Part shown: in pieces, positions 701 to 64,000 of the stretch
Position numbering within the stretch: the first letter of the stretch is position 1
Layout: every line of letters begins with the position of its first letter
Assembly (NCBI GenBank): GCA_964016885.1
Contig: OZ024744.1
Span: 99,386,001 to 99,450,000, forward strand
DNA: 64,000 nucleotides
Direction of reading: 5' to 3'
DNA from: Eledone cirrhosa
Lineage: Eukaryota
Position numbers and translations under genes: made by a program
Notes under the pieces: model-generated
The model's database searches: none
What the model was told of the DNA's origin: nothing
What the model saw: the letters and a program-made list of their open reading frames with translations, nothing else

Positions 701-836
701 TATTAAATGTGGAAATATCCTCTTTATAAATAAATAAATGTTTTGATATTACACTGAAAGAATCTCTTCAGCATTTTCTACTGAAAAATCTTTTTCCTTT
801 CTACTATTTGTTTTTATATATTTCAACTCGTGTGTT

Positions 837-1094
<258 letters not shown>

Positions 1095-1104
1095 AACAAG
1101 TAAG

Positions 1105-1198
1105 ACCCCGACGGCTGAGCTCAAGCCGTTTCGACGGCTAATTCTGGACTGAATGAAAATTTATTCTGGTATTTAAATAGCCGAGCTTATCAAGGGGG
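1105..1198 (-). ncRNA. Type I hammerhead ribozyme (U3-A8 core variant)
   Basis: Minus strand: CCCC-UUGAUAA (1193-1187)-G/CGGCUA...UAGCCG/C-GAAA (1132-1129)-CGGCU-ugagcuc-AGCCG-UC-GGGG. GUC triplet at 1112-1110; stems I, II and III all pair. Confidence 0.8.
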
Positions 1199-1815
1199 TA
1201 ATTCCATATATGGTCAAAGAGATAATCACCAGGATTGGTCACATCACAAGTTAGTAGTAAATCTGTGATGGCAAATTAGTGGGGGAAGGGGTAGCTAAAC
1301 CTGCCGGTAGGAGAAAAAGGGAGAGGGGATGGAGTAGACCCATTCATGCGTTGGTAGTGCCGGCTACAGCTGGGCATGAGGTCAAAGAGGATACTGGGGG
1401 AGGAAGTCGAAACGGTAAGTAGAACAATGAAGGGTAAAACTATAAAAAGTACTGAGAATGAAAAAAAAAAAATAAAAAAAAAAATAAAAAAAAATGAGCA
1501 AAGTCTGGTTACTAAGACTTAAGTCTCTCGCTATTGCTAGGCTAAAGAAATACATAAATAAATAAATAAACAAACAAATAAATGAATAAAAGAATAGATA
1601 AATAAATAAAAAAAATATAATAAATTATTAAAAAATAAATAATAATAATAATAATAAATAGACTAGGTGGGACGGAAATAAAGGGACCCTTATAAGAGGT
1701 AAAAGTGCGTGTATCGTACGGTGACGGGTCAACAAAAGGGGGGCCAAAATACTAAAGAGACTACCACGAAATAATAAAGGTTTCTATCCCAATCTCTTTG
1801 ACCATATATGGAATT

Positions 1816-1909
1816 ACCCCTTGATAAGCTCGGCTATTTAAATACCAGAATAAATTTTCATTCAGTCCAGAATTAGCCGTCGAAACGGCTTGAGCTCAGC
1901 CGTCGGAGT
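1816..1909 (+). ncRNA. Type I hammerhead ribozyme (U3-A8 core variant)
   Basis: ACCCC-UUGAUAA (1821-1827); stem II G1828:C1881 plus CGGCUA (1831-1836):UAGCCG (1874-1879); GAAA 1882-1885; stem III ACGGCU:AGCCGU; GUC 1902-1904; 3' strand of stem I is GGAGU (one mismatch). Confidence 0.78.
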
Positions 1910-2000
1910 TTTACTTGTTCCTATTACCCACTCTACTACCCTAAGTATTGAGTACTTTGGTGCGTTATGGTCCACCTGGTTCGTTACCACATTTACTTCG

Positions 2001-2001
<1 letters not shown>

Positions 2002-2057
<56 letters not shown>
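2002..2057. repeat. (TA)n microsatellite
   Basis: Direct reading. Confidence 0.97.
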
Positions 2058-2060
<3 letters not shown>

Positions 2061-2319
2061 CAAGAGTAACCAATCTTAAAGAGAGAGATGGAGATAGGAG
2101 AGGAGAGATTGGTGAATTAGTTAGAAGCCAAAGCATAAAGGCATGTGCTCAATGTGCAATATGCAGTGGAAAGCAGCTAGGTGGCTGGGTTCATGCAGAA
2201 GTTAGGTGCGCAGAGCAGGAAATATTCATTAGTTAAGCAAAACAAGACCACAAATTTCACAAGGAAGACATTATTAAAAGATTGTCAACATATTTTAGTT
2301 TGATGTAAGGAATGTAGAG

Positions 2320-8211: not shown

Positions 8212-11200
8212 AGTGTTGTGCAAGAGAGAAGACTGTGTTGGTATAGACATGTGATGTACATGGATGATGGTTGTTGGATGAAGAAATGCCAGGAAATCCC
8301 AGTGGAAGGAAGCCACAGAAGAGGTAGACCAAGGAAGACCCGGGTGGATGTGGTGAGAGCTGATCTCAAATTGCTGAGACTCACAGGAGATGACGAAGGA
8401 ATGCAAGGAGTGTGCAAAAGAGAAGACTCTGTTGGTGGTATAGACATGTGAAGAAATGCCAGGAAATGTCAGTGGATGGAAGCTGTGGTAGAGGTAGACC
8501 AAGGAAGACCTGGGTAGAGGAAATACCAGTGGAAGGAAGCTGTAGTAGAGGTAGACCAAGGAAGACCTGGGTAGAGGAAATGCCAGTGGAAGGAAGCTGT
8601 AGTAGAGGTAGACCAAGGAAGACCTGGACAGAGGAAATGCCAGTGGAAGGAAGCCGCAGTAGAGGTAGACCAAGGAAGACCTGGACAGAGGAAGTGTCAG
8701 TGGAAGGAAGCTGTAGTAGAGGTAGACCAAGGAAGACCTGGACAAAGGAAATGCCAGTGGAAGGAAGCCGCAGTAGAGGTAGACCAAGGAAGACCTGGGT
8801 AGAGGAAATGTCAGTGGAAGGAAGCTGTAGTAGAGGTAGACCAAGGAAGACCTGGGTAGAGGAAATGTCAGTGGAAGGAAGCTGTAGTAGAGGTAGACCA
8901 AGGAAGACCTGGGCAGAGGAAATGTCAGTGGAAGGAAGCTGTAGTAGAGGTAGACCAAGGAAGACCTGGGTAGAGGAAATACCAGTGGAAGGAAGCTGTA
9001 GTAGAGGTAAACCAAGGAAGACCTAGGCAGAGGAAATGCCAGTGGAAGGAAGCTGTAGTAGAGGTAGACCAAGGAAGACCTAGGCAGAGGAAATGCCAGT
9101 GGAAGGAAGCCGCAGTAGAGGTAGACCAAGGAAGACCTGGGTAGAGGAAATGCCAGTGGAAGGAAGCTGTAGTAGAGGTAGACCAAGGAAGACCTAGGCA
9201 GAGGAAATGCCAGTGGAAGGAAGCTGTAGTAGAGGTAGACCAAGGAAGACCTAGGCAGAGGAAATGCCAGTGGAAGGAAGCTGTAGTAGAGGTAGACCAA
9301 GGAAGACCTGGGTAGAGGAAATACCAGTGGAAGGAAGCAGTAGAGGTAGACCAAGGAAGACCTGGGTAGAGGAAATACCAGTGGAAGGAAGCAGTAGAGG
9401 TAGACCAAGGAAGACCTGGGTAGAGGAAATGTCAGTGGAAGGAAGCTGTAGTAGAGGTAGACCAAGGAAGACCTGGACAGAGGAAATGTCAGTGGAAGGA
9501 AGCTGCAGTAGAGGTAGACCAAGGAAGACCTGGGCAGAGGAAATGTCAGTGGAAGGAAGCTGTAGTAGAGGTAGACCAAGGAAGACCTGGGCAGAGGAAA
9601 TGTCAGTGGAAGGAAGCTGCAGTAGAGGTAGACCAAGGAAGACCTGGGCAGAGGAAATGTCAGTGGAAGGAAGCTGTAGTAGAGGTAGACCAAGGAAGAT
9701 CTGGGTAGAGGAAATGTCAGTGGTAGGAAGCTGTAGTAGAGGTAGACCAAGGAAGACCTGGGCAGAGGAAATGTCAGTGGAAGGAAGCCGCAGTAGAGGT
9801 AGACCAAGGAAGACCTGGGCAGAGGAAATGTCAGTGGAAGGAAGCTGCAGTAGAGGTAGACCAAGGAAGACCTGGGCAGAGGAAATGTCAGTGGAAGGAA
9901 GCTGTAGTAGAGGTAGACCAAGGAAGACCTGGGCAGAGAAAATGTCAGTGGAAGGAAGCCGCAGTAGAGGTAGACCAAGGAAGACCTGGGCAGAGGAAAT
10001 GTCAGTGGAAGGAAGCCGCAGTAGAGGTAGACCAAGGAAGACCTGGGCAGAGGAAATGTCAGTGGAAGGAAGCCGCAGTAGAGGTAGACCAAGGAGAAAC
10101 TGGGCAGAGGAAATGTCAGTGGAAGGAAGCTGTAGTAGAGGTAGACCAAGGAATACCTGGGTAGAGGAAATGTCAGTGGAAGGAAGCTGTAGTAGAGGTA
10201 GACCAAGGCAGACCTGGGCAGAGGAAATGCCAGTGGAAGGAAGCTGTAGTAGAGGTAGACCAAGGAAGACCTGGACAGAGGAAATGCCAGTGGAAGGAAG
10301 CTGTAGTAGAGGTAGACCAACGAAGACCTGGGTAGAGGAAATGTCAGTGGAAGGAAGCCACAGTGAGGTAGACCAAGGAAGACCTGGGCAGAGGAAATGT
10401 CAGTGGAAGGAAGCTGTAGTAGAGGTAGACCAAGGAAGACCTGGGTAGAGGAAATACCAGTGGAAGGAAGCTGTAGTAGAGGTAGACCAAGGAAGACCTA
10501 GGCAGAGGAAATGCCAGTGGAAGGAAGCTGTAGTAGAGGTAGACCAAGGAAGACCTGGGTAGAGGAAATGTCAGTGGAAGGAAGCTGTAGTAGAGGTAGA
10601 CCAAGGAAGACCTGGGTAGAGGAAATACCAGTGGAAGGAAGCAGTAGAGGTAGACCAAGGAAGACCTGGGTAGAGGAAATGTCAGTGGAAGGAAGCTGTA
10701 GTAGAGGTAGACCAAGGAAGAACTGGGCAGAGGAAATACCAGTGGAAGGAAGCTGTAGTAGAGGTAGACCAAGGAAGACCTGGGTAGAGGAAATGCCAGT
10801 AGAAGGAAGCCACAGTAGAGGTAGACCAAGGAAGACCTGGGCAGAGGAAATGTCAGTGGAAGGAAGCTGTAGTAGAGGTAGACCAAGGAAGACCTGGGTA
10901 GAGGAAATGTCAGTGGAAGGAAGCTGTAGTAGAGGTAGACCAAGGAAGACCTGGGTAGAGGAAATACCAGTGGAAGGAAGCAGTAGAGGTAGACCAAGGA
11001 AGACCTGGGTAGAGGAAATGTCAGTGGAAGGAAGCTGCAGTAGAGGTAGACCAAGGAAGACCTGGGCAGAGGAAATGCCAGTGGAAGGAAGCTGCAGTAG
11101 AGGTAGACCAAGGAAGACCTGGGCAGAGGAAATGTCAGTGGAAGGAAGCTGTAGTAGAGGTAGACCAAGGAAGACCTGGGCAGAGGAAATGTCAGTGGAA

Positions 11201-14200
11201 GGAAGCTGTAGGAGAGGTAGACCAAGGAAGACCTGGGTAGAGGAAATACCAGTGGAAGGAAGCTGCAGTAGAGGTAGACCAAGGAAGGCCTGGGTAGAGG
11301 AAATACCAGTGGAAGGAAGCTGTAGTAGAGGTAGACCAAGGAAGACCTGGGTAGAGGAAATGTCAGTGGAAGGAAGCTGTAGTAGAGGTATACCAAGGAA
11401 GACCTGGGCAGAGGAAATGTCAGTGGAAGGAAGCTGTAGGAGAGGTAGACCAAGGAAGACCTGGGTAGAGGAAATACCAGTGGAAAGAAGCTGTAGTAGA
11501 GGTAGACCAAGGATGACCTGGGCAGAGGAAATGTCAGTGGAAGGAAGCTGTAGTAGAGGTATACCAAGGAAGACTTGGGTAGAGGAAATGTCAGTGGAAG
11601 GAAGCTGTGGTAGAGGTAGAAAAAGGAAGACCTGGGCAGAGGAAATACCAGTGGAAGGAAGCTGCAGTAAGGTAGACCAAGGAAGACCTGGGTAGAGGAA
11701 ATATCACTGGAAGGAAGCTGTAGTAGAGGTAGACCAAGGAAGACTTGGGCAGAGGAAATGTCAGTGGAAGGAAGCTGTAGTAGAGGTAGACCAAGGAAGA
11801 CCTGGGTAGAGGAAATGTCAGTGGAAGGAAGCTGCAGTAGAGGTAGACCAAGGAAGACCTGGGCAGAGGAAATGTCAGTGGAAGGAAGCTGTAGTAGAGG
11901 TAGACCAAGGAAGACCTGGGTAGAGGAAATGTCAGTGGAAGGAAGCCGCAGTAGAGGTAGACCAAGGAAGACCTGGGTAGAGGAAATGTCAGTGGAAGGA
12001 AGCTGTAGTAGAGGTAGACCAAGGAAGACCTGGGTAGAGGAAATGTCAGTGGAAGGAAGCTGTAGTAGAGGTAGACCAAGGAAGACCTGGGCAGAGGAAA
12101 TGTCAGTGGAAGGAAGCTGTAGTAGAGGTAGACCAAGGAAGACCTGGGTAGAGGAAATACCAGTGGAAGGAAGCTGTAGTAGAGGTAAACCAAGGAAGAC
12201 CTAGGCAGAGGAAATGCCAGTGGAAGGAAGCTGTAGTAGAGGTAGACCAAGGAAGACCTAGGCAGAGGAAATGCCAGTGGAAGGAAGCCGCAGTAGAGGT
12301 AGACCAAGGAAGACCTGGGTAGAGGAAATGCCAGTGGAAGGAAGCTGTAGTAGAGGTAGACCAAGGAAGACCTAGGCAGAGGAAATGCCAGTGGAAGGAA
12401 GCTGTAGTAGAGGTAGACCAAGGAAGACCTAGGCAGAGGAAATGCCAGTGGAAGGAAGCTGTAGTAGAGGTAGACCAAGGAAGACCTGGGTAGAGGAAAT
12501 ACCAGTGGAAGGAAGCAGTAGAGGTAGACCAAGGAAGACCTGGGTAGAGGAAATACCAGTGGAAGGAAGCAGTAGAGGTAGACCAAGGAAGACCTGGGTA
12601 GAGGAAATGTCAGTGGAAGGAAGCTGTAGTAGAGGTAGACCAAGGAAGACCTGGACAGAGGAAATGTCAGTGGAAGGAAGCTGCAGTAGAGGTAGACCAA
12701 GGAAGACCTGGGCAGAGGAAATGTCAGTGGAAGGAAGCTGTAGTAGAGGTAGACCAAGGAAGACCTGGGCAGAGGAAATGTCAGTGGAAGGAAGCTGCAG
12801 TAGAGGTAGACCAAGGAAGACCTGGGCAGAGGAAATGTCAGTGGAAGGAAGCTGTAGTAGAGGTAGACCAAGGAAGATCTGGGTAGAGGAAATGTCAGTG
12901 GTAGGAAGCTGTAGTAGAGGTAGACCAAGGAAGACCTGGGCAGAGGAAATGTCAGTGGAAGGAAGCCGCAGTAGAGGTAGACCAAGGAAGACCTGGGCAG
13001 AGGAAATGTCAGTGGAAGGAAGCTGCAGTAGAGGTAGACCAAGGAAGACCTGGGCAGAGGAAATGTCAGTGGAAGGAAGCTGTAGTAGAGGTAGACCAAG
13101 GAAGACCTGGGCAGAGAAAATGTCAGTGGAAGGAAGCCGCAGTAGAGGTAGACCAAGGAAGACCTGGGCAGAGGAAATGTCAGTGGAAGGAAGCCGCAGT
13201 AGAGGTAGACCAAGGAAGACCTGGGCAGAGGAAATGTCAGTGGAAGGAAGCCGCAGTAGAGGTAGACCAAGGAGAAACTGGGCAGAGGAAATGTCAGTGG
13301 AAGGAAGCTGTAGTAGAGGTAGACCAAGGAATACCTGGGTAGAGGAAATGTCAGTGGAAGGAAGCTGTAGTAGAGGTAGACCAAGGCAGACCTGGGCAGA
13401 GGAAATGCCAGTGGATGGAAGCTGTAGTAGAGGTAGACCAAGGAAGACCTGGACAGAGGAAATGCCAGTGGAAGGAAGCTGTAGTAGAGGTAGACCAACG
13501 AAGACCTGGGTAGAGGAAATGTCAGTGGAAGGAAGCCACAGTGAGGTAGACCAAGGAAGACCTGGGCAGAGGAAATGTCAGTGGAAGGAAGCTGTAGTAG
13601 AGGTAGACCAAGGAAGACCTGGGTAGAGGAAATACCAGTGGAAGGAAGCTGTAGTAGAGGTAGACCAAGGAAGACCTAGGCAGAGGAAATGCCAGTGGAA
13701 GGAAGCTGTAGTAGAGGTAGACCAAGGAAGACCTGGGTAGAGGAAATGTCAGTGGAAGGAAGCTGTAGTAGAGGTAGACCAAGGAAGACCTGGGTAGAGG
13801 AAATACCAGTGGAAGGAAGCAGTAGAGGTAGACCAAGGAAGACCTGGGTAGAGGAAATGTCAGTGGAAGGAAGCTGTAGTAGAGGTAGACCAAGGAAGAC
13901 CTGGGCAGAGGAAATACCAGTGGAAGGAAGCTGTAGTAGAGGTAGACCAAGGAAGACCTGGGTAGAGGAAATGCCAGTGGAAGGAAGCCACAGTAGAGGT
14001 AGACCAAGGAAGACCTGGGCAGAGGAAATGTCAGTGGAAGGAAGCTGTAGTAGAGGTAGACCAAGGAAGACCTGGGTAGAGGAAATGTCAGTGCAAGGAA
14101 GCTGTAGTAGAGGTAGACCAAGGAAGACCTGGGTAGAGGAAATACCAGTGGAAGGAAGCAGTAGAGGTAGACCAAGGAAGACCTGGGTAGAGGAAATGTC

Positions 14201-17200
14201 AGTGGAAGGAAGCTGCAGTAGAGGTAGACCAAGGAAGACCTGGGCAGAGGAAATGCCAGTGGAAGGAAGCTGCAGTAGAGGTAGACCAAGGAAGACCTGG
14301 GCAGAGGAAATGTCAGTGGAAGGAAGCTGTAGTAGAGGTAGACCAAGGAAGACCTGGGCAGAGGAAATGTCAGTGGAAGGAAGCTGTAGTAGAGGTATAC
14401 CAAGGAAGACCTGGGCAGAGGAAATGTCAGTGGAAGGAAGCTGTAGGAGAGGTAGACCAAGGAAGACCTGGGTAGAGGAAATACCAGTGGAAGGAAGCTG
14501 CAGTAGAGGTAGACCAAGGAAGGCCTGGGTAGAGGAAATACCAGTGGAAGGAAGCTGTAGTAGAGGTAGACCAAGGAAGACCTGGGTAGAGGAAATGTCA
14601 GTGGAAGGAAGCTGTAGTAGAGGTATACCAAGGAAGACCTGGGCAGAGGAAATGTCAGTGGAAGGAAGCTGTAGGAGAGGTAGACCAAGGAAGACCTGGG
14701 TAGAGGAAATACCAGTGGAAGGAAGCTGCAGTAGAGGTAGACCAAGGAAGGCCTGGGTAGAGGAAATACCAGTGGAAGGAAGCTGTAGTAGAGGTAGACC
14801 AAGGAAGACCTGGACAGAGGAAATGCCAGTGGAAGGAAGCTGTAGTAGAGGTAGACCAAGGAAGACCTGGGTAGAGGAAATACCAGTGGAAAGAAGCTGT
14901 AGTAGAGGTAGACCAAGGATGACCTGGGCAGAGGAAATGTCAGTGGAAGGAAGCTGTAGTAGAGGTAGACCAAGGAAGACCTGGGTAGAGGAAATGTCAG
15001 TGCAAGGAAGCTGTAGTAGAGGTAGACCAAGGAAGACCTGGGTAGAGGAAATACCAGTGGAAGGAAGCAGTAGAGGTAGACCAAGGAAGACCTGGGTAGA
15101 GGAAATGTCAGTGGAAGGAAGCTGCAGTAGAGGTAGACCAAGGAAGACCTGGGCAGAGGAAATGCCAGTGGAAGGAAGCTGCAGTAGAGGTAGACCAAGG
15201 AAGACCTGGGCAGAGGAAATGTCAGTGGAAGGAAGCTGTAGTAGAGGTAGACCAAGGAAGACCTGGGCAGAGGAAATGTCAGTGGAAGGAAGCTGTAGTA
15301 GAGGTATACCAAGGAAGACCTGGGCAGAGGAAATGTCAGTGGAAGGAAGCTGTAGGAGAGGTAGACCAAGGAAGACCTGGGTAGAGGAAATACCAGTGGA
15401 AGGAAGCTGCAGTAGAGGTAGACCAAGGAAGGCCTGGGTAGAGGAAATACCAGTGGAAGGAAGCTGTAGTAGAGGTAGACCAAGGAAGACCTGGGTAGAG
15501 GAAATGTCAGTGGAAGGAAGCTGTAGTAGAGGTATACCAAGGAAGACCTGGGCAGAGGAAATGTCAGTGGAAGGAAGCTGTAGGAGAGGTAGACCAAGGA
15601 AGACCTGGGTAGAGGAAATACCAGTGGAAGGAAGCTGCAGTAGAGGTAGACCAAGGAAGGCCTGGGTAGAGGAAATACCAGTGGAAGGAAGCTGTAGTAG
15701 AGGTAGACCAAGGAAGACCTGGACAGAGGAAATGCCAGTGGAAGGAAGCTGTAGTAGAGGTAGACCAAGGAAGACCTGGGTAGAGGAAATACCAGTGGAA
15801 AGAAGCTGTAGTAGAGGTAGACCAAGGATGACCTGGGCAGAGGAAATGTCAGTGGAAGGAAGCTGTAGTAGAGGTATACCAAGGAAGACTTGGGTAGAGG
15901 AAATGTCAGTGGAAGGAAGCTGTGGTAGAGGTAGAAAAAGGAAGACCTGGGCAGAGGAAATACCAGTGGAAGGAAGCTGCAGTAAGGTAGACCAAGGAAG
16001 ACCTGGGTAGAGGAAATGTCACTGGAAGGAAGCTGTAGTAGAGGTAGACCAAGGAAGACTTGGGCAGAGGAAATGTCAGTGGAAGGAAGCTGTAGTAGAG
16101 GTAGACCAAGGAAGACCTGGGTAGAGGAAATGTCAGTGGAAGGAAGCTGCAGTAGAGGTAGACCAAGGAAGACCTGGGCAGAGGAAATGTCAGTGGAAGG
16201 AAGCTGTAGTAGAGGTAGACCAAGGAAGACCTGGGTAGAGGAAATGTCAGTGGAAGGAAGCCGCAGTAGAGGTAGACCAAGGAAGACCTGGGTAGAGGAA
16301 ATATCACTGGAAGGAAGCTGTAGTAGAGGTAGACCAAGGAAGACCTGGGCAGAGGAAATACCAGTGGAAGGAAGCCGCAGTAGAGGTAGACTAAGAAAGA
16401 CCTGGGTAGAGGAAATGTCAGTGGAAGGAAGCTGCAGTAGATTTAGACCAAGGAAGACCTAGGCAGAGGAAATGTCAGTGGAAGGGAGCCACAGTAGAGG
16501 TAGATCAACGAGGACCTGGTCAGAGGAAATGTCAGTGGAAGGAAGCTGCAGTAGAGATAGACCAAGGATGACCTGGGCAGAGGAAATGTCAGTGGAAGGA
16601 AGCTGTAGTAGAGGTAGACCAACGAAGACTTGGGTAGAGAAAATGTCAGTGGAAGGAAGCTGTAATAGAGGTAGACAAAGGAAGACCTGGGCAGAGGAAA
16701 TGTCAGTGGAAGGAAGCTGTAGTAGAGATAGACCAAGGAAGACCTGGGTAGAGAAAATGTCAGTGGAAGGAAGTTGTAATAGAGGTAGACCAAGGAAGAC
16801 CTGGGCAGAGGAAATGTCAGTGGAAGGAAGCTGTAGTAGAGGTAGACCAAGGAAGACCTGGGTAGAGGAAATGTCAGTGGAAGGAAGCTGTAGTAGAGGT
16901 AGACCAAGGAAGACTTGGGTAGAGGAAATGTCAGTGGAAGGAAGCTGTAGTAGAGATAGACCAAGGATGACTTGGGCAGAGGAAATGTCAGTGGAAGGAA
17001 GCCGCAGTAGAGGTAGACCAAGGAAGACCTGGGTAGAGGAAATGTCAGTGGAAGGAAGCTGCAGTAGAGGTAGACCAAGGAGACCTGGGCAGAGGAAATG
17101 TCAGTGGAAGGAAGCTGTAGTAGAGGTGGACCAAGGAGACCTGGGCAGAGGAAATGTCAGTGGTAGGAAGCTGTAGTAGAGGTAGACCAAGGTAGACCTG

Positions 17201-17745
17201 GGTAGAGGAAATGTCAGTGGTAGGAAGCTGTAGTAGAGGTGGACCAAGGAGACCTGGGCAGAGGAAATGTCAGTGGTAGGAAGCTGTAGTAGAGGTGGAC
17301 CAAGGAGACCTGGGCAGAGGAAATGTCAGTGGAAGGAAGCTGTAGTAGAGGTAGACCAAGGAAGACCTGGGCAGAGGAAATGCCAGTGGAAGGAAGCTGT
17401 AGTAGTGGTAGACCAAGGAAGACCTGGGCAGAGGTGGTGAGAGCTGATCATAAATCATTGAGACTCACAGGAGATGATGAAGGAACGTAGTGAGTGTGCA
17501 AGAGAGAAGACTGTATTGGTATGGACATATGATGTACATGGACGATGATCACTGGGTGAAGAAGTGGCAGGAAATTCTAGTGGAAGGAAGCTGCAATAGA
17601 GGAAGACCAAGGAGGACCTTCGTGGAGGTGGTGAGACTCACAGAGGACATGATGAAGGAATGTGGTGAGTGGAGTACTGAGCCAATCTGTTGATGACCCA
17701 TTCAGTCCTTGCTAGCAGGGAAAGCGGGTAATAAGGATGATGGTT
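8212..17745 (+). mobile_element. Tandem triplet of an RTE LINE 3'-end fragment; the middle copy carries the 57-bp expansion
   Basis: Copy 1 ~8212-8407 (VQERRLCWYRHVMYMDDGCWMKKCQEIPVEGSHRRGRPRKTRVDVVRADLK), copy 2 ~8408-17491, copy 3 ~17492-17690 (VQERRLYWYGHMMYMDDDHWVKKWQEILVEGSCNRGRPRRTFVEVV), then a 3'UTR-like tail ending in GATGATG. Confidence 0.85.
8461..17434 (+). repeat. 57-bp minisatellite, ~157 copies, LINE-derived, with higher-order duplications
   Basis: Unit aggaaatgtcagtggaaggaagctgtagtagaggtagaccaaggaagacctgggtag (period 8461 to 8518); occasional 54-, 55- and 56-bp variants. Confidence 0.98.

Positions 17746-48929: not shown

Positions 48930-48977
<48 letters not shown>
48930..48977. 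repeat. (TA)n microsatellite
   Basis: Direct reading. Confidence 0.97.
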
Positions 48978-48978
<1 letters not shown>

Positions 48979-49105
48979 CGAAGGAAATGTGGTAAGGAAC
49001 CAGGTGGACCTTAACGCACCAAAGTACTCAATACTTGAGGTAGTAGAGTGGGTAAGAATTAGCCGTCGAAACGGCTTGAGCTCAGCTGTCGGGGTCTTAC
49101 TGGTT

Positions 49106-49109
<4 letters not shown>
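48976..49109 (-). mobile_element. 134-bp internally deleted derivative of the 1091-2003 element
   Basis: Minus strand reads the left end 1091-1144 joined directly to the tail 1924-2003, with a few substitutions; flanked by (TA)n on both sides; keeps only the GAAA/stem III/GUC half of the hammerhead. Confidence 0.85.
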
Positions 49110-49178
<69 letters not shown>

Positions 49179-49213: not shown

Positions 49214-49267
49214 ACTACCATAGCCACCACTACGATCGCTGCTGCCGCAACCACCTCCACCTCCACC

Positions 49268-49313
<46 letters not shown>

Positions 49314-52300
49314 TCCCCACACACGCCACCACCACCATCACCACGGCCTCTAACACCACCAACATCTCCATCACCAACAACACCACTACCAACACCACAG
49401 CCACTACCACTAACACCACCACCAACACCACTACCAACACCACAGCCACTACCACCAACACCACCACCAACACCACTACCAATACCACAGCCACTACTAC
49501 CAACACCACAGCCACTACCACTAACACCACCACCAACACCACCACCAACACCACTACCAACACCACAGCCACTACCACCAACACCACCACTAACACCACT
49601 ACCAACACCACAACCACTACCACTAACACCACCACCAACACTACTACCAACAACACTACCAACACCACAGCCACCACCACCAACACCACCACCAACACCA
49701 CTACCAACACCACAGCCACTACCACCAACACCACCACTAACACCACTACCAACACCACAGCCACTACCACTAACACCACCACCAACACTACTACCAACAC
49801 CACAGCCACTACCACTAACACCACCACCAACACTACTACCAACACCACAGCCACTACCACCAACACCACCACTAACACCACTACCAACACCACTTCCAAC
49901 ACCAGAGCCACTACCACTAACACCACCACCAACGCCACTACCAACACCACAGCCACTACCACCAACACCTCAACCAACACCACTACCAACACCACAGCCA
50001 CTACCACTAACACCACTACCAACACCACTACCAACACCAGAGCCACTACCACTAACACCACTACCAACACCACTACCAACACCACAGCCACTACCACTAA
50101 CACCACTACCAACACCACTACCAACACCACAGCCACTACCATTAACACCACCACCAACACCACTACCAACACCACAGCCACTACCACCAACACCACCACT
50201 AACACCACTACCAACACCACAGCCACTACCACTAACACCACCACCAACACCACTACCAACACCACAGCCACTACCACCAACACCTCAACCAACACCACTA
50301 CCAACACCACAGCCACTACCACTAACACCACGACCAACACCACTACCAACACCACAGCCACTACCCCTAACACCACCACCAACGCCATTACCAACACCAC
50401 AGCCACTACCACTAACACCACCACCAACACCACTACCAACACCACAGCCACTACCACTAACACCACCACTAACACTACTACCAACACCACAGCCACTACC
50501 ACTGACACCACTACCAACACCACTACCAACACCACAGCCACTACCATTAACACCACTACCAACACCACTACCAACACCACAGCCACTACCCCTAACACCA
50601 CCACCAACGCCACTACCAACACCACAGCCACTACCACTAACACCACTGCCAACACCACAGCCACTACCCCTAACACCATCACCAACGCCACTACCAACAC
50701 CACAGCCACTACCACTGACATTACCACCAACACCACTACCAACACCACAGCCACTACCATTAACACCACCAACAACACCACTACCAACACCACAGCCACT
50801 ACCACTAACACCACCACCAACACCACTACCAACACCACAGACACTACCACTAATACCACCACCAACACCACAGCTACTACCACTAATACCACCACCAACA
50901 CCACAGCCACTACCACTAACACCACCAACACCACTACCAACACCACAGCCACTACCACTAACACCACCAACACCACTACCAACACCACAGCCACTACCAT
51001 TAACACCACCACCACTACCATCACCACAGGCAATATCTAACACCACCACCAAAACCACTACCAACACCACAGCCACTACTACTAATATCCCCACCAACAA
51101 CACTACCAACACCACCACAGACACTACCACTAACACCACATCTAATACCACCAACACACACAGCCACTACCATTAACACCAATAACACCACCACAACCAC
51201 TACCACTAACACCACTACCAACACCACAGCCACTACCACTAACACCACTACCAACACCACTACCAACACCACAGCCACTACCACTAACACCACCACCAAC
51301 ACCAATAAAAACACCACAGCCACTACCACTAACACCACCACTAACACCACTACCAACACCGCAGCCACTTCCACTAACACCACCACCAACACCACTACCA
51401 ACGCCACAGCTACTATCACTAATACCACCACCAACACCACAGCTACTACCACTAATACCACCACCAACACCACAGCCACTACCATCAACACCACTACCAA
51501 CACCACAGACACTACCACTAACACCACGACCAACACCAATACCAACACCACAGTTACTACCACTAATACCACCACCAACACCACAGCCACTACCACTAAC
51601 ACCACCACCAACACCACCACCAACACCACTACCAACACCACCACTAACACCACCACCAACGACACTACCAACACCACAGACACTACCTCTAACACCACCA
51701 CTAAATCCACCACCAACACCACTACCAACACCACAGCCACCGCTATTAACACCACCACCAACACCACTACCAACACCACAGCCACTACTACAAACATCCC
51801 CACCAACAACACTACCAACCCCACCACCAACACCACAGCCACTACCACTAACACCACCACAGACACCACTACCAACCCCACATACACTACCACTAACACC
51901 ACTACTAACGCCACTACCAACACCACAGACACTACCACTAACGCCACCACCAACGACACTACCAACACCGCTAACACCACTACCAACACTACAGTCACTA
52001 CCACTAACACCACTACCAACACCACTACCAACACCAGAGCCACTAACACCCCCACCAACACCACAGTCACTACCACTAACACCACCACCAACACCACCAC
52101 CAATGCCACAGCCACAACCATTAACACCACTACCAACACCAATACCAACATCACAGCCACTACCATTAACACCACCACTAACACCACTACCAATACCACA
52201 GCCACTACCACTAACACCACCACCAACACCGCTACCAACACCACTACTAACACCACAACGACTACCACTAACACCACTACCAACAGCACTACCAACACCA

Positions 52301-55300
52301 CAGCTACTAGCATTAACACCACCACCAACACCACTACCAACACCACAGCTACTATCACTAACACCACTACCTACACCACTACCAACACCGCAGCCACTAC
52401 CACTAACACTACAACCAACACCACTACCAAGACCACAGCCACTACCACTAACACCACCACCAACACCACTACCAACACCACTACCAACACCACTACCAAC
52501 ACCACAGCAACTACCACCAACACCACCACCAACACCACTACCAACACCACAGCCACTACCGCTAAAACCACCACTAACACCACCACCAACACCAGAGCTA
52601 CTACCACTAACACCACCACCAACACCACTACCAACACCACAGCCACCACCACCAACACCACTACCAACACCACAGCCACTACCATTAACACGACCACCTA
52701 CAGCACGACCAACACCACTACCAACACCACTACCAACACCACTACCAACACCACTACCAACACCACAGCCACTACTACTAACACCACCACTAACACCACC
52801 TCCAACACCACAGCCACTACCATCAACACCACCACCAACACCACAGCCACTGCCGCTAACACCACCACTAACACCACAACCAACACCACTAACACCACTA
52901 CCAGCACCAGAGCCACCACCACTACGAACACAACCAACAACACCAACACCACTACCATTATCACTAACACCACCACTAACACCACTACCAACTTCAGAGC
53001 CACTACCATTAACACCACCACCAACACCACTACCAACACCACTACCAACACCACTACCAACACCACAGCCACTACCACTAACACCACCACCAACACCACT
53101 AAAAACACCACAGCTACTACCACTAACACCACCACCAACACCACCACCAACACCACTACCAACACAACTACCAATACCACAGCTACTACAACCAACACCA
53201 CTACCAACACAACTACCAACACCACAGCCACTACCACTAACACCACTGCCAACACCACTACCAACACGACAGTCACTACCACTATCACCACCACCAACAC
53301 CACTAACAACACCACAGCCACTACCAATAACACCATCACCAATACCACAGCCACCACCACAAACACCACCACTAACACTACTACCAAGACCACTATCAAC
53401 ACCACTAACAACATCACAGCCACTTCCATAACACCACCACCACTAGCACCACTACCTACGTCACAGCCACTACCACTAACCCCACCAGCAACCCCACTAC
53501 CTACACCACAGCCACTACCACCAACACCACAACCAACACCACAGCCACTACCACCAACACCACAACCAACACCACAGCCACTACCACCAACACCACCACC
53601 AACACCACAGCCACTACCACTAACATTACCACCAACACCACCACCAACACCACAGCCACTACCACTAACATTACCACCAACACCACCACCAACACCACAG
53701 CCACTACCACTAACATTACCACCAACACCACAGCCACTACCACTAACATTACCACCAACACCACCACCAACACCACAGCCACTACCACTAACATTACCAC
53801 CAACACCACAACCAACACCACAGCCGCTACCACCAACACCACCACCAACACCACAGCCACTACCACTAACATTACCACCAACACCACAACCAACACCACA
53901 GCCGCTACCACCAACACCACCACCAACACCACAGCCACTACCACTAACATTACCACCAACACCAACACCACAGCCACTACCACTAACATTACCACCAACA
54001 CCACAACCAACACCACAGCCACTACCACTAACATTACCACCAACACCACAACCAACACCACAGCCACTACCACCAACACCACCACCAACACCACAGCCAC
54101 TACCACTAACATTACCACCAACACCACCACCAACACCACAGCCACTACCACTAACATTACCACCAACACCACCACCAACACCACAGCCACTACCACTAAC
54201 ATTACCACCAACACCACCACCAACACCACAGCCACTACCACTAACATTACCACCAACACCACAACCAACACCACAGCCACTACCACCAACACCACCACCA
54301 ACACCACAGCCACTACCACTAACATTACCACCAACACCACAACCAACACCACAGCCACTACCAATAACACCACCACCAACACCACTACCAACACCACAGC
54401 CACTACCACTAACACCACCACCAACACCACAGCCACTACCACTAACATTACCACCAACACCACAGCCAACACCACAGCCACTACCATTAACACCACCACC
54501 AACACCACAGCCACTACCACTAACATTACCACCAACACCACCACCAACACCACAGCCACTACCAAGAACACCACCACCAGCACCACAGCCACTACCACTA
54601 TCACCACCAACACCAGTACCAACACCACAGCCACTACCATTAACACCACCACCAACACCACAGCCACTACCACTAACACCACCAACACCACTACCAACAC
54701 CACAGCCACTACCACTAACACCACCACCAACACCACAGCCACTACCACTAACACCACCACCAACACCACTACCAACACCACAGCCACTACCACTAACACC
54801 ACTACCAACACCACTACCAACACCACAGCCACTACCATTAACACCACCACCAACAACACTACCAACACCACAGCCACTACCACTAACACCACCACCAACA
54901 CCACTACCTACACCACAGCCACTACCATTAACACCACCACCAACACCACTGCCACTACCACTAACACCACCAGCAACACGACTACCAACACCACAGCCAC
55001 CACCACTAACACCACCACCAACACCACAGCCACTACCACTAACACCACCAGGAACACCACTACCAACATCACAGCTACTACCATTAACACCACCACCAAT
55101 ACTACTACCAACACCACAGCCACTACCATCAACACCACCACCAACACCACAGCCACTGCCGCTAACACCACCACTAACACCACAACCAACACCACTAACA
55201 CCACAACCAACACCAGAGCCACCACCACTACGAACACAACCAACAACACCAACACCACTACCATTATCACTAACACCACCACTAACACCACTACCAACTT

Positions 55301-58300
55301 CAGAGCCACTACCATTAACACCACCACCAACACCACTACCAACACCACTACCAACACCACTACCAACACCACAGCCACTACCACTAACACCACCACCAAC
55401 ACTACTAAAAACACCACAGCTACTACCACTAACAACACCACCAACACCACTACCAACACCACTACCAACACCACTACCAACACCACTACCAACACCACAG
55501 CCACTACCACTAACACCACCACCAACACCACTACCAACACCACAGCCACTACCACCAACACCACCACCAACACCACTAAAAACACCACAGCTACTACCAC
55601 TAACACCACCACCAACACCACTACCAACACCACTACCAAGATCACAGCCACTACCACTAACACCACCACCACCAACACCACTACCTACACCACGGCCACT
55701 ACCACTAACACCACCACCAACACCACTACAAACACCACAGCCACTACCACTAACACCACCACCAACACCACTAAAAACACCACAGCTACTACCACTAACA
55801 CCACCACCAACACCACCACCAACACCACTACCAACACCACAGTCACTACCACTAACACCACCACCAACACCACTACCAACACCACAGCCACTACCACTAA
55901 CACCACCACCAACACCACTAAAAACACCACAGCTACTACCACTAACACCACCACCAACACCACTACCAACACCACTACCAAGATCACAGCCACTACCACT
56001 AACACCACCACCACCAACACCACTACCAACACCACTACCAAGATCACAGCCACTACCACTAACACCACCACCACCAACACCACTACCTACACCACGGCCA
56101 CTACCACTAACACCACCACCAACACCACTACAAACACCACAGCCACTACCACTAACACCACCACCAACACCACTAAAAACACCACAGCTACTACCACTAA
56201 CACCACCACCAACACCACCACCAACACCACTACCAACACCACAGTCACTACCACTAACACCACCACCAACACCACTACCAACACCACTACCAAGATCACA
56301 GCCACTACCACCAACACCACTACCAACACCAAAGCCACTACCACTAACACCACTACCAACATCACAACCACTACCAAAAACACCACCACCAACACCACTA
56401 CCAACACCACAGCCACTACCAAAAACACCACCCCAACACCACAGCTACTACCACTAACACCACCACCAACACCACCACCAAAACCACTACCAACACCACA
56501 GCCACCACCACTAACACCACTGCCAACACCACTACCAATACCACAGCTACTACAACCAACACAACTACCAACACCACATCCACTACCGTTAACACCACCA
56601 CTAACACCACTGCCAACACCACTACCAACACGACAGTCACTACCACTATCACCACCACCAACACCACTAACAACACCACAGCCACTACCATTAACACCAT
56701 CACCAATACCACAGCCACCACCACAAACACCACCACTAACACCACTGCCAACACCACTACCAACACGACAGTCACTACCACTATCACCACCACCAACACC
56801 ACTAACAACATCACAGCCACTTCCATAACACCACCACCACTAGCACCACTACCTACGTCACAGCCACTACCACCAACACCACTACCAACACCACAGCCAC
56901 AACCACTAACACCACTACCAACACCACCACCAACACCACAGCCACTAGTCTATCACCACCACCAATTCCACTACCAACACCACAGCCACTACCACTAACC
57001 CCACCAGCAACCCCACTACCTACACCACAGCCACTACCACTAACACCACCACCAACACCACTACCAACACCACAGCCACTACCACTAACACCACCACCAA
57101 CACCACTACCAACACCACAGCCACTACCACTAACCCCACCAGCAACCCCACAACCAACACCACAGCCACTACCACCAACACCACCACCAACACCACTACC
57201 AACACCACGGCCACTACCACCAACACCACCACCAACACCACAGCCACTACCACTAACATTACCACCAACACCACCACCAACACCACAGCCACTACCATTA
57301 ACACCACCACCAACACCACAGCCACTACCACTAACATTACCACCAACACCACAACCAACACCACAGCCACTACCATTAACACCACCACCAACACCACAGC
57401 CACTACCACTAACACCACCACCAACACCACAGCCACTACCACTAACACCACCACCAACACCACAGCCACTACCATTAACACCACCACCAACACCACAGCC
57501 ACTACCACTAACACCACAACCAACACCACAGCCACTACCATTAACACCACCACCAACACCACAGCCACTACCACCAACACCACCACCAACACCACAGCCA
57601 CTACCACTAACACCACCACCAACACCACAACCAACACCACAGCCACTACCATTAACACCACCACCAACACCACAGCCACTACCACTAACATTACCACCAA
57701 CACCACCACCAACACCACAGCCACTACCACCAACACCACCACCAACACCACAGCCACTGCCACTAACACCACCACCAACACCACAACCAACACCACAGCC
57801 ACTACCATTAACACCACCACCAACACCACAGCCACTACCACTAACATTACCACCAACACCACCACCAACACCACAGCCACTACCATTAACACCACCACCA
57901 ACACCACAGCCACTACCACTAACATTACCACCAACATCACAACCAACACCACAGCCACTACCATTAACACCACCACCAACACCACAGCCACTACCACTAA
58001 CATTACCACCAACACCACAACCAACACCACAGCCACTATCACTAACACCACTACCAACACCACTACCAACACCACAGCCACTACCACTAACACCACCACC
58101 AACACCACAGCCACTACCACTAACACCACCACCAGCACCACTACCAACACCACAGCCACTACCACTAACACCACCACCAACACCACTACCAATACCACAG
58201 CCACTACCACTAACACCACCACCAACACCACTACCTACACCACAGTCACTACCACTAACACCACTACCAACACCACTACCAACACCACAGCCACTACCAC

Positions 58301-61300
58301 TAACACCACTACCAACACCACTACCAACACCACAGCCACTACCATTAACACCACCACCAACACCACTACCAACACCACATCCACTACCACTAACACCACC
58401 ACCAACACCACTACCAACACCACATCCACTACCACTAACACCACCACCAACACCACTACCAACACCACATCCACTACCACTAACACCACCACCAACACCA
58501 CTACCTACACCACAGTCACTACCACTAACACCACTACCAACACCACTACCAACACCACTACCAACACCACAGCCACTACCACTAACACCACTACCAACAC
58601 CACTACCAACACCACAGCCACTACCATTAACACCACCACCAACACCACTACCAACACCACTACCAACACCACAGCCACTACTGCTAATACCACCCCCAAC
58701 ACCACTACTAACACCACAGCCACTACCACTAACACCACCAACACCACTACCAACACCACAGCCACTACCATTAACACCACCACCAACACCACTACCAACA
58801 CCACATCCACTACCACTAACACCACCACCAACACCACTACCAACACCACATCCACTACCACTAACACCACCACCAACACCACTACCAACACCACATCCAC
58901 TACCACTAACACCACCACCAACACCACTACCTACACCACAGTCACTACCACTAACACCACTACCAACACCACTACCAACACCACAGCCACTACTGCTAAT
59001 ACCACCCCCAACACCACTACCAACACCACAGCCACTACCACTAACACCACCACCAACACCACTAGTAACACCACAGCCACAACCACTAACACCACCAGCA
59101 ACACCACTACCACTAACACCACCACCAATACCACTACCAACACCACAGCCACTACCACTAACACCACCACCAACACCACTACCAACACCACTGCCACTAC
59201 CACTAACACCACCACAAACCCCACTACCAACACCACAGCCACTACCACTAACACCACCACAAACCCCACTACCAACACCACAGCCACTACCACTAACACC
59301 ACCACCAACACCACTACCAATACCACAGTCACTACCACTAACACCACCACCAACACCACTACCAATACCACAGTCACTACCACTAACACCACCACCAACA
59401 GCACTACCAATACCACAGTCACTACCACTAACACCACTACCTACGCCACTACCAACACCACAGCCACTACCACTAACACCACCACCAACACCACTACCAA
59501 CACCACAGTCACTACCACTAACACCACTACCTACACCACTACCAACACCACAGCCACTACCACTAACACCACTACCAACACCACAGCCACTACTGCTAAT
59601 ACCACCCCCAACACCACTACCAACACCACAGCCACTACCACTAACACCACCACCAACCCCACTACCAACACCACAGCCACTACCACTAACACCACCACCA
59701 ACACCACTACCAACACCACAGCCACTACCACTAACACCACCACCAACACCACTAAAAACACCACAGCTACTACCACTAACACCACCACCAACACCACTAC
59801 CAACACCACAGCCACTACCACTAACACCACCACCAACACCACTACCAACACCACAGCCACTACCACTAACACCACCACCAACACCACTAAAAACACCACA
59901 GCTACTACCACTAACACCACCACCAACACCACTACCAACACCACTACCAAGATCACAGCCACTACCACTAACACCACCACCACCAACACCACTACCTACA
60001 CCACGGCCACTACCACTAACACCACCACCAACACCACTACAAACACCACAGCCACTACCACTAACACCACCACCAACACCACTAAAACACCACAGCTACT
60101 ACCACTAACACCACCACCAACACCACCACCAACACCACTACCAACACCACAGCCACTACCACTAACACCACCACCAACACCACTACCAACACCACAGCCA
60201 CTACCACTAACACCACCACCAACACCACTAAAAACACCACAGCTACTACCACTAACACCACCACCAACACCACTACCAACACCACTACCAAGATCACAGC
60301 CACTACCACTAACACCACTACCACCAACACCACTACCTACACCACGGCCACTACCACTAACACCACCACCAACACCACTACAAACACCACAGCCACTACC
60401 ACTAACACCACCACCAACACCACTAAAAATACCACAGCTACTACCACTAACACCACCACCAACACCACTACCAACACCACTACCAAGATCACAGCCACTA
60501 CCACCAACACCACTACCAACACCAAAGCCACTACCATTAACACCACCACCACCAACACCACTACCTACACCACGGCCACTACCACTAACACCACCACCAA
60601 CACCACTACAAACACCACAGCCACTACCACTAACACCACCACCAACACCACTAAAAATACCACAGCTACTACCACTAACACCACCACCAACACCACTACC
60701 AACACCACTACCAAGATCACAGTCACTACCACCAACACCACTACCAACACCAAAGCCACTACCATTAACACCACTACCAACATCACAACCACTACCAAAA
60801 ACACCACCACCAACACCACTACCAACACCACAGCCACTACCAAAAACACCACCCCAACACCACAGCTACTACCACTAACACCACCACCAACACCACCACC
60901 AAAACCACTACCAACACCACAGCCACCACCACTAACACCACTGCCAACACCACTACCAATACCACAGCTACTACAACCAACACAACTACCAACACCACAT
61001 CCACTACCGTTAACACCACCACTAACACCACTGCCAACACCACTACCAACACGACAGTCACTACCACTATCACCACCACCAACACCACTAACAACACCAC
61101 AGCCACTACCATTTACACCATCACCAATACCACAGCCACCACCACAAACACCACCACTAACACCACTGCCAACACCACTACCAACACAACAGTCACTACC
61201 ACTATCACCACCACCAACACCACTAACAACACCACAGCCACTACCATTAACATCATCACCAATACCACAGCCACCACCACCAACACCACCACCAAAACCA

Positions 61301-64000
61301 CTACCAACACCACAGCCACCACCACTAACACCACTGCCAACACCACTACCAATACCACAGCTACTACAACCAACACAACTACCAATACCACATCCACTAC
61401 CGTTAACACCACCACTAACACCACTGCCAACACCACTACCAACACGACAGTCACTACCACTATCACCACCACCAACACCACTAACAACACCACAGCCACT
61501 ACCACTAACACCACCACTAACACTACTACCAAGACCACTATCAACACCACTAACAACATCACAGCCACTTCCATAACACCACCACCACTAGCACCACTAC
61601 CTACGTCACAGCCACTACCACCAACACCACTACCAACACCACCACCAACACCACAGCCACTAGTCTATCACCACCACCAATTCCACTACCAACACCACAG
61701 CCACTACCACTAACACCACCACCAACACCACTACCAACACCACATCCACTACCACTAACCCAACCAGCAACCCCACTACCAACACCACAGCCACTACCAA
61801 TAACACCACCACCAACACCACTACCAACACCACAGCCACTACCACTAACCCCACCAGCAACCCCACTACCTACACCACAGCCACTACCACTAACACTACC
61901 ACCAACACCACAACCAACACCACAGCCACTACCAAGAACACCACAACCAACACCACAGCCACTACCAAGAACACCACAACCAACACTACAGCCACTACCA
62001 CTAACATTACCACCAACACCACAGCCACTACCACTAACATTACCACCAACACCACAACCAACACCACAGCCACTACCACCAACACCACCACCAACACCAC
62101 AGCCACTACCACTAACACCACCACCAACACCACAACCAACACCACAGCCACTACCATTAACACCACCACCAACACCACAGCCACTACCACTAACATTACC
62201 ACCAACACCACAACCAACACCACAGCCACTACCACCAACACCACCACCAACACCACAGCCACTACCACCAACACCACCACCAACACCACAGCCACTACCA
62301 CCAACACCACCACCAACACCACAGCCACTACCACCAACACCACCACCAACACCACAGCCACTACCACTAACACCACCACCAACACCACAACCAACACCAC
62401 AGCCACTACCATTAACACCACCACCAACACCACTACCAACACCACTACCAACACCACTACCAACACCACAGCCACTACCACTAACACCACCACCAACACC
62501 ACAACCAACACCACAGCCACTACCACCAACACCACCACCAACACCACAGCCACTACCACTAACATTACCACCAAGACCACAACCAACACCACAGCCACTA
62601 CCATTAACACCACCACCAACACCACAGCCACTACCACTAACATTACCACCAACACCACAACCAACACCACAGCCACTACCACCAACACCACCACCAACAC
62701 CACAGCCACTACCACTAACATTACCACCAACACCACCACCAACACCACAGCCACTACCATTAACACCACCACCAACACCACAGCCACTACCACTAACATT
62801 ACCACCAACACCAACACCACAGCCACTACCACCAACACCACCACCAACACCACAGCCACTACCACTAACATTACCACCAAGACCACAACCAACACCACAG
62901 CCACTACCACTAACATTACCACCAACACCACCACCAACACCACAGCCACTACCACTAACATTACCACCAACACCACAACCAACACCAAAGCCACTACCAT
63001 TAACACCACCACCAACACCACAGCCACTACCACTAACATTACCACCAACACCACCACCAACACCACAGCCACTACCACTAACATTACCACCAACACCACA
63101 ACCAACACCAAAGCCACTACCATTAACACCACCACCAACACCACAGCCACTACCACTAACATTACCACCAACACCACCACCAACACCACAGCCACTACCA
63201 CTAACATTACCACCAACACCACAGCCACTACCACTAACATTACCACCAACACCACTACCAACACCACAGCCACTACCATTAACACCACCACCAACACCAC
63301 AGCCACTACCACTAACATTACCACCAACACCACAACCAACACCACAGCCACTACCACCAACACCACCACCAACACCACAGCCACTACCACTAACATTACC
63401 ACCAACACCACAACCAACACCACAGCCACTACCACCAACACCACCACCAACACCACAGCCACTACCACTAACATTACCACCAACACCACCACCAACACCA
63501 CAGCCACTACCACTAACATTACCACCAACACCACAACCAACACCACAGCCACTATCACTAACACCACCACCAACACCACAGCCACTACCACTAACATTAC
63601 CACCAACACCACCACCAACACCACAGCCACTACCACTAACATTACCACCAACACCACAACCAACACCACAGCCACTATCACTAACACCACCAACACCAGT
63701 ACCAACACCACAGCCACTACCACCAACACCACTACCAACACCACAGCCACTACCACTAACACCACCACCAACACCACAGCCACTACCACTAACACCACCA
63801 CCAACACCACTACCAACACCACAGCCACTACCACTAACACCACCACCAACACCACTACCAATACCACAGCCACTACCAATAACACCACCACCAACACCAC
63901 TACCTACACCACAGTCACTACCACTAACACCACTACCAACACCACTACCTACACCACAGTCACTACCACTAACACCACTACCAACACCACTACCAACACC
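49214..64000 (+). repeat. C/A-rich compound satellite built from 12/18-bp modules (30- and 42-bp periods), runs off the window
   Basis: Modules ccaacaccacta, ccaacaccacagccacta, ccactaacaccacca; block duplications of several hundred bp (e.g. ~52810-53130 with ~55115-55435; ~56340-56720 with ~60770-61150). Confidence 0.95.

Follow-up and report, generated by a model that had tools for sequence, protein, structure and literature searches.

The hammerhead-bearing element in the window, by which the whole 64,000-nt stretch of DNA analysed here is meant, is by its sequence a 5'-truncated, inverted insertion of a Penelope-like element (PLE) into a (TA)n microsatellite. It belongs to an autonomous PLE family of the Hydra clade, and the start of transcription in this family would lie inside loop II of the hammerhead motif, so that the motif, with its U3-A8 core pair, would cut in read-through RNA only. 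We hold this combined reading to be probable.

Structure of the inserted element

The features to which the text refers are as follows, in positions of the window.

841..1092, no strand: (TA)n target microsatellite, left flank
1091..1794, minus strand: tail-less arm, a 704-nt 5'-truncated copy of the 3' UTR/pLTR that stops at end site 1
1090..1223, minus strand: left inverted-repeat arm with hammerhead motif (core 1193-1187, GAAA 1132-1129)
1110, minus strand: predicted cut of the left-arm motif, after C1110
1792..1794, no strand: inversion junction, an overlap of about 3 nt between the two arms
1792..1924, plus strand: right inverted-repeat arm (pLTR end)
1816..1909, plus strand: type I hammerhead motif, predicted cut after C1904
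1835..1842, plus strand: TATA-like box TATTTAAA where stem II meets loop II, putative promoter element
1858..1874, plus strand: Inr-like motifs and 5' breakpoint cluster of the family, candidate transcription start inside loop II
1925..2003, plus strand: 79-nt tail, from end site 1 (1924) to end site 2 (2003)
2002..2057, no strand: (TA)n target microsatellite, right flank
48972..49110, no strand: second, mini insertion of the same PLE family in (TA)n

The element is made up of the 704-nt arm, ending at site 1, that stands head to head with a 212-nt arm ending at site 2, and it has no coding capacity. The tail-less arm (1091-1794) is 93% identical to the 3' UTR of a full-length copy, L031, and is devoid of coding sequence because its first base lies some 600 nt past the stop of the ORF. 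The 79 extra bases at 1925-2003 are present on the right side only; in full-length copies they form part of the 5' UTR, the ORF starting at about 2095 in window coordinates.

A first-pass annotation, made from the sequence alone, had described inverted repeats of about 133 bp with about 98% identity, and the alignment of 1090-1223 (minus) with 1792-1924 (plus) agrees with this, comprising 134 columns with two substitutions and one gap. In the predicted fold of the whole element, base pairs with the far arm involve 131 of the first 134 nt. Both hammerhead motifs would be locked by this mutual pairing of the arms. Each motif also carries a private change in stem I when compared with 61 copies, namely one extra C in the left (minus) arm and, in the right (plus) arm, a G>A at 1907 (1/61 copies). 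Since the arms pair with each other and stem I is broken in the plus copy, both hammerhead copies of the window are, according to this model, probably inert.

The mini insertion at 48972-49110 carries the letters of the youngest subfamily. Its tail lies on the minus strand, its plus-strand arm corresponds to element positions 1869-1924 and the 5' core is absent.

Much of the window is occupied by tandem arrays, with a 57-bp unit repeated 158 times at 8461-17434, an 85-bp unit repeated 336 times at 18904-47450 and a 33/45-bp array, rich in ACC, that spans about 14.7 kb at 49250-64000. Two copies of a dispersed repeat (176-306 and 2337-2466), 87% alike over 111 nt, resemble a common octopus SINE.

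Identity and coding capacity of the family

With the right arm as query, 2009 candidate genome matches were obtained, and all 40 that were scored lay at 98-100%. Longer copies run upstream into an endonuclease- and RT-coding frame, and copy L031 is built as pLTR-ORF-pLTR plus an inverted tail-less pLTR. Together with the arms of the window, this structure confirms the proposed identity as a Penelope-like pLTR, including the inverted pLTR without tail.

The search for linked RT/GIY-YIG ORFs was positive, as seven complete ORFs of 717-719 aa with RT and GIY-YIG were translated from four genomic regions. The first-pass description of the family as non-autonomous is thereby contradicted. Several of these ORFs lie in head-to-tail 3.54-kb tandems with one hammerhead motif per unit; the tandem unit is thus a coding element and not a short non-coding repeat, so that the label of retrozyme had to be dropped. 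Open frames of 784 codons were counted by hand in 27 of the best 150 protein matches, and 1922 homologues were found.

The family protein is marked by RWR, SDKT (DKG changed to DKT), YRDD and a C-terminal VIY/YIG region. Its linker reads C-N-C-x5-C, CCHH is absent, one Cys lies between the GIY- and YIG-like words, and CNLC and CKH are present. Pfam gave no match on the family protein itself; GIY-YIG was matched on homologue P0002 and weakly on P0023. The published hallmarks of the Hydra clade are RWK, DKT, CxCX5C, no CCHH, CxxC and CxH around E and N, and a (TA)n target (PMC8557442). All listed hallmarks are present, reference proteins having been compared by eye, and by these sequence marks the family is an autonomous Hydra-clade PLE.

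In a 100-locus sample, exact TATATATA adjoins 55 of the 63 scored left ends and 62 of the 71 scored right ends. The target is (TA)n, and the family has two fixed 3' ends, 79 nt apart.

Several Hydra families are present in the genome, one endonuclease query alone giving 55,423 first-look candidates, and different Hydra families often insert beside or into each other's (TA)n flanks (L051, L031:1-1139, L225, L236).

Anatomy and predicted folding of the hammerhead motif

On the plus strand, the stem I strands are 1816-1820 and 1905-1909, and the core UUGAUAA at 1821-1827 provides the U3-A8 pair. Stem II (1828-1836/1874-1881) comprises G10.1 (1828) with C11.1 (1881), a 2x1 internal loop and six base pairs of 1831-1836 with 1874-1879; it is followed by the 37-nt loop II (1837-1873) and by GAAA at 1882-1885. 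Helix III (1885-1903) has 6 bp with GAGCUC at 1892-1897, and GUC ends at C1904, the position after which a cut had been expected and is also predicted here from the motif. The elements required of a hammerhead core (3-8 pair, G5, A6, A9, G12-A14, A15.1-U16.1, NUH) are present, the 3-8 pair being broken in one subfamily, C3-A8.

Two details of the earlier description were right as far as they went. Stem III does contain the palindrome GAGCUC, but helix III as a whole is a perfect 18-nt palindrome plus one extra U. Loop II does measure 37 nt, but it is more than a big loop, since it holds the TATA-like box, Inr-like motifs and the dominant 5' breakpoint.

A custom hammerhead descriptor that demands four contiguous stem I pairs gave a score of 18 for an intact family copy, and none of 3000 dinucleotide shuffles attained even 12, which supports the type I fold with U3-A8 core claimed for each arm. 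Of the window copies, it detects only that on the minus strand because the G>A at 1907 interrupts stem I of the other. Rfam returned no hammerhead match at E<=10 in window 800-2300 or on a young family copy; the motif is therefore missed by Rfam as well as, in keeping with the first-pass annotation, by strict CUGANGA searches. Little weight is given to the Rfam result because the canonical-core hammerhead of a sister family was missed too.

For neither window copy is the hammerhead the predicted lowest-energy fold of the monomer. In the window's subfamily, 0.1-1.5% of monomers are predicted to be in the active fold, and a competing hairpin covers GAAA. For a dimer of an intact copy, the predicted lowest-energy structure is a double hammerhead-like fold with stems I and II and an extended helix III. 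In the youngest subfamily, the hammerhead is the lowest-energy fold even as monomer. Judging from these models, helix III likely serves dimeric activity.

The motif sits just before end site 1, where the sister family, which is 50% identical, has a canonical CUGAUGA hammerhead. The stems of the sister family are wholly different in sequence, yet paired, at the same place. Although C3-G8 is absent, a hammerhead does occupy the position where one would be looked for, and we therefore regard the motif as a hammerhead variant and not as a loss.

Subfamilies and sequence conservation

Three core patterns gave 406 (U7, the window's subfamily), 2,227 (G7, A10.2) and 1,693 (G7, C10.2) exact matches, in sum 4,326, and reversed-pattern controls gave 0 matches for each of the three. 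Divergence from the group majority in the four groups distinguished was 1.8%, 0.6%, 5.2% and 2.9%. The youngest subfamily, with 0.6% divergence and 2,227 matches, bears out the claim of a young family; it has kept U3-A8, as have three of the four subfamilies in all. Among the 300 matches listed, there was one U3-G8 and no C3-G8.

C3-A8, in which the pair is broken, was counted by hand in 45 of the first 100 listed of the 1,693 matches. As this subfamily has spread widely, transposition does not require the 3-8 pair. It is likely derived from U3-A8, judging from a tree in which its clade has a support of 83 and the root is weak. A role of C3-A8 as an intermediate from C3-G8 to U3-A8 is not supported, as the outgroup-rooted tree roots, with weak support, among U3-A8 copies. 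By extrapolation, the C3-A8 subfamily (L347-L376) may have perhaps 700-800 motif copies; its TATA-like box is altered.

When the four subfamily majorities were compared, only 1 of 36 columns differed in 1874-1909 versus 48 of 208 upstream (Fisher p=0.003), and the single differing column, a C>U, leaves the position paired as G-U. Differences were seen in 5 of the 37 loop II columns (p=0.28). The 5' half of the motif, with 3 of 21 columns differing (p=0.58), is not significantly more conserved than the upstream sequence, and the three differing columns are fixed by the search patterns that define the groups. Within the family, which is young, one stem change from G-C to G-U was found and no two-sided change; the other changes between subfamilies concern the free N7, position 10.2 (adding a pair) and a G-U wobble. 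Lower per-copy mutation rates in core and stems were discounted because the picking of copies is biased. Conservation of the 3' half may be due to a function in the 5' UTR or as a protein-binding site.

5' breakpoints inside loop II

The tail pattern has 28,486 exact matches in the genome, compared with the 4,326 exact core matches. Breakpoints were read from the first 100 listed tail matches, unselected and all from the first 25 Mb of one contig. Only 8 of the 100 tailed arms reach the core, and 77 loci are small fold-backs. Arm ends fall in 1855-1876, inside loop II, in 116 of 177 cases, with none in 1819-1854 and eight beyond; in 48 of the 77 two-armed copies both arms end in this cluster. 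By an exact-match method, 108 arms could be anchored; 104 of them stop at 1859-1874, four read through and 1853-1858 contains no end. These extents include microhomology and are possibly a few nt too long. Extrapolated from the one contig end, the core-less mini insertions would number about 26,000, or 92% of the 28,486.

The resulting wall in loop II stands 25-39 nt behind the TATA-like box starting at 1835. Measured against the Inr consensus, Inr-like words centre on A1860 and A1864. We conclude from the DNA breakpoints that transcription of the PLE likely starts inside loop II, the reasons being the pile-up of arm ends behind the TATA-like box and a matching result in the sister family.

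The sister family (L171-L177) has open frames of 750-758 codons and 17,133 tail matches. It has a TATA-like TATAAATA upstream of its hammerhead, and a break about 30 nt behind this box was predicted beforehand. Ends at TATA+28 to +39, immediately ahead of the hammerhead, were found in 11 of 30 tailed arms and in 12 of 16 tail-less ones; eight tailed arms extend upstream of the TATA-like box. The mini fold-backs of the sister family keep the whole canonical ribozyme. TATA and Inr-like motifs have been described in rotifer pLTRs (PMC3846280).

Several further readings of the breakpoints and of loop II were rejected. A footprint of ribozyme cleavage was looked for at the cut site, and a few copies do break at 1905-1906, but there is no excess of breakpoints there (5/38 in 1903-1907, p=0.46). 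A G precedes five of the seven arms ending at 1864; it was not counted as cap-templated, because the partner arm can supply a G before 1864. Homology of loop II to the sister promoter segment was dismissed on a local score of 82 against a shuffle mean of 70 and maximum of 99 (p=0.11). A third Hydra family (L129, L131, L137), with a canonical CUGAGGA core, a 61-nt stem-loop II and 327 matches, shows 23 of its 30 ends at the core or further upstream and one in the loop, many of its copies being segmental duplicates; as it has no wall in the loop, a long loop II was not accepted as a general sign of an inner start. Contigs of two sequencing runs, which do not show RNA ends, pointed to variants of the subfamilies and to numerous joints around 1860-1870.

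Among the 77 two-armed copies, 16 have a tail-less arm that exceeds the tailed arm by at least 10 nt, and the reverse holds for 4. Because of these 16 copies, a single folded-back or self-primed cDNA cannot explain the structure.

Proposed mechanism and alternative explanations

We propose that the element protein would nick both strands of the (TA)n target and prime a first cDNA at site 1 (1924) and a second at site 2 (2003), and that the cDNA 3' ends would be joined, often by microhomology, which would give an inversion whose arms stand head to head and of which only one side is tailed. For a PLE of the anole, the tail has been reported to be the stretch between two RT start sites, with both DNA strands extended and uncut RNA as the main template (PMC11167929). 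On promoter-started RNA with +1 near 1860/1864, the cDNAs would run off after about 60 and about 140 nt, resulting in the core-less mini insertions, which account for about 92% of the copies with a tail; uncut read-through RNA would give longer cDNAs, as in the window copy (704 and 212 nt).

Promoter-started mRNA would be without the 5' strand of stem I, the core and the 5' strand of stem II, and such a half ribozyme would not cut itself, so that the mRNA would retain its 5' end and leader. This RNA would have a leader of about 235 nt before the ORF with one upstream AUG, and its GAAA is predicted to lie in a hairpin in three of four folds. A whole ribozyme would occur only in pLTRs transcribed from upstream, where dimerisation through the helix III palindrome would aid it. 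In a plant retrozyme, the hammerhead of the 5' LTR removes the 5' end of the promoter RNA, and mutant RNA is translated efficiently (PMC12029980); an inner start would avoid such a loss. That the hammerhead is gated in this manner by the transcription start, with an inert, capped half-ribozyme mRNA, active read-through pLTRs and mini insertions as strong-stop-like cDNA pairs, is plausible, and we put it forward tentatively.

The same element and the same start site would also be compatible with a hammerhead that is a relaxed or dead relic, rarely transcribed whole, whose 3' half is kept for other reasons. The success of the C3-A8 subfamily with its likely origin from U3-A8 (support 83, weak root) fits such a relic, as do the lack of excess breakpoints at the cut site, the poor monomer folding of the window's subfamily (subfamily 1) and the normal insertion in vitro of hammerhead mutants of the anole element (PMC11167929). 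We nevertheless think it unlikely, because three of four subfamilies, the youngest included, keep U3-A8, because the other changes in these subfamilies fall on the free N7, on position 10.2, where a pair is added, and on a G-U wobble, and because covariation to U3-A8 has been reported in natural hammerheads, as has the activity of such pairs in vitro (PMC3088659). Alternatively, the wall may mark a 3' splice site, an RNase-sensitive C-A step or a structural stall of the RT, in which case the ribozyme would be whole in the primary mRNA. An AG at 1864-1865 or 1869-1870 does follow a U-rich tract, a pyrimidine tract and a CAG lie close to the wall in either family, the intron of Drosophila Penelope ends at hammerhead helix I (PMC4209133), and Penelope's own promoter is TATA-less and internal (PMC2377424). 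Splicing is at odds, however, with the several arms that run to 1859-1861, past the first AG, and carry the subfamily's genomic letter at 1863, and with junction inserts that share no common exon. A stall is difficult to reconcile with an RT that passes helix III, GAAA and the 3' strand of stem II before the wall and, in the sister family, the whole hammerhead. The feature common to both walls is the distance from a TATA-like box, and we consider all three of these readings distinctly improbable.

The first-pass annotation had taken the two outward-facing ribozymes as a design, in the form of a retrozyme or a non-autonomous derivative of a PLE with two active copies. The window copy does encode nothing, and both motifs are nearly intact; yet the family is autonomous, the arms pair with each other, short tandem repeat units are lacking, junctions differ from copy to copy, and the 913-bp unit was not seen copied as a unit. 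Such a design is refuted for the family, and the facing pair is a by-product of the insertion mode of PLEs.

The role of hammerheads in PLEs is an open question (PMC8557442, PMC11167929). Within the 5' pLTR, a ribozyme would be expected to trim the mRNA start, and within the 3' pLTR to part the body from the RT start sites. If the proposed gating by the transcription start is true, mini insertions map the RNA 5' end, and PLE inversions are two cDNAs primed on opposite target strands. The present family, whose 5' copy would be disabled by the position of the transcription start, the ordinary sister family and the broken-pair C3-A8 subfamily offer a natural three-way comparison. The breakpoint pile-up suggests that PLE transcript starts may be mapped from DNA only, and it supports a two-cDNA origin of the one-tailed inversion. 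The literature searched, which scarcely includes subscription papers, yielded no account of transcription starting within a hammerhead loop and none of PLE mini fold-backs that arise by run-off. The new points are the family itself, which belongs to a known clade, and the likely start inside loop II; the U3-A8 core and facing pairs are already in print.

Comparison with known systems

Hydra-clade PLEs such as Hydra-1_Obim resemble the family in protein marks (RW(K/R), DKT, CxCX5C, no CCHH, CxxC/CxH around E/N) and in having a (TA)n target, an inverted 5'-truncated copy, a one-sided tail and a hammerhead near the 3' end (PMC8557442). In contrast, all 26 Hydra rows of File S2 of that study have C3-G8, a loop II of 3-10 nt and short helices III, while the window family combines U3-A8 with a loop II of 37 nt and a helix III of 6 bp, the latter being an 18-nt palindrome. 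Its unit of 3.5 kb and tail of 79 nt also exceed what is general in the clade (<3 kb and 30-40 bp; PMC8557442). The family is not Hydra-1_Obim, since the hammerheads differ, and two family motifs had 0 matches in the available supplement of PMC8557442, in which line breaks could hide one.

Among metagenome relatives (76 loci, 36-43% identity), hammerhead matches were obtained in 26, with C3-G8 in all but one locus (G3-C8) and a stem-loop II of at most 25 nt. No U3-A8 hammerhead was present in the 76 loci, and they provided no close relative for covariation. One Hydra-like metagenome element (L097:284 and 2787) has two pLTR hammerheads with a G3-C8 core pair.

A second, unrelated U3-A8 family with short stems was encountered, with 166 exact pattern matches and 0 in the control (L158:199; G000 C2:208895103-208908052, C3:190372371-190375690). 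It lies partly in arrays with a spacing of about 318 bp, is retrozyme-like and had no linked ORF in the loci scanned.

The Cercyon hammerheads of Schistosoma mansoni are alike in U3-A8, with covariation (~1,300 hits), and in G10.1-C11.1 (PMC4209133). The minimal hammerheads of metazoan PLEs share the palindromic helix III, the dimer model and opposite-strand pairs 100-700 bp apart, and the helix II bulge is as in D. virilis Penelope (PMC4209133). Unlike these minimal hammerheads, the window family has a helix III long enough for a monomer, no additional base between A9 and G10.1 (PMC4209133) and a large loop II with promoter-like motifs and the main 5' breakpoint.

Poseidon PAc of Anolis carolinensis is similar in that two RT start sites bound the tail, targets are AT-rich, both strands are extended, uncut RNA is the template and there are no RNA ends at the cut site (PMC11167929). 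It differs in belonging to another clade and in a C3-G8 hammerhead that overlaps the start codon, and its account, in the text available, describes neither run-off at a transcript 5' end nor mini fold-backs (PMC11167929). Non-LTR retrozymes, finally, share the type I hammerhead and are PLE-related, but they are non-coding tandem repeats of 150-450 bp, whereas the tandem unit of the window family is a 3.5-kb coding element (PMC7229834; bioRxiv 10.64898/2026.07.22.740005).
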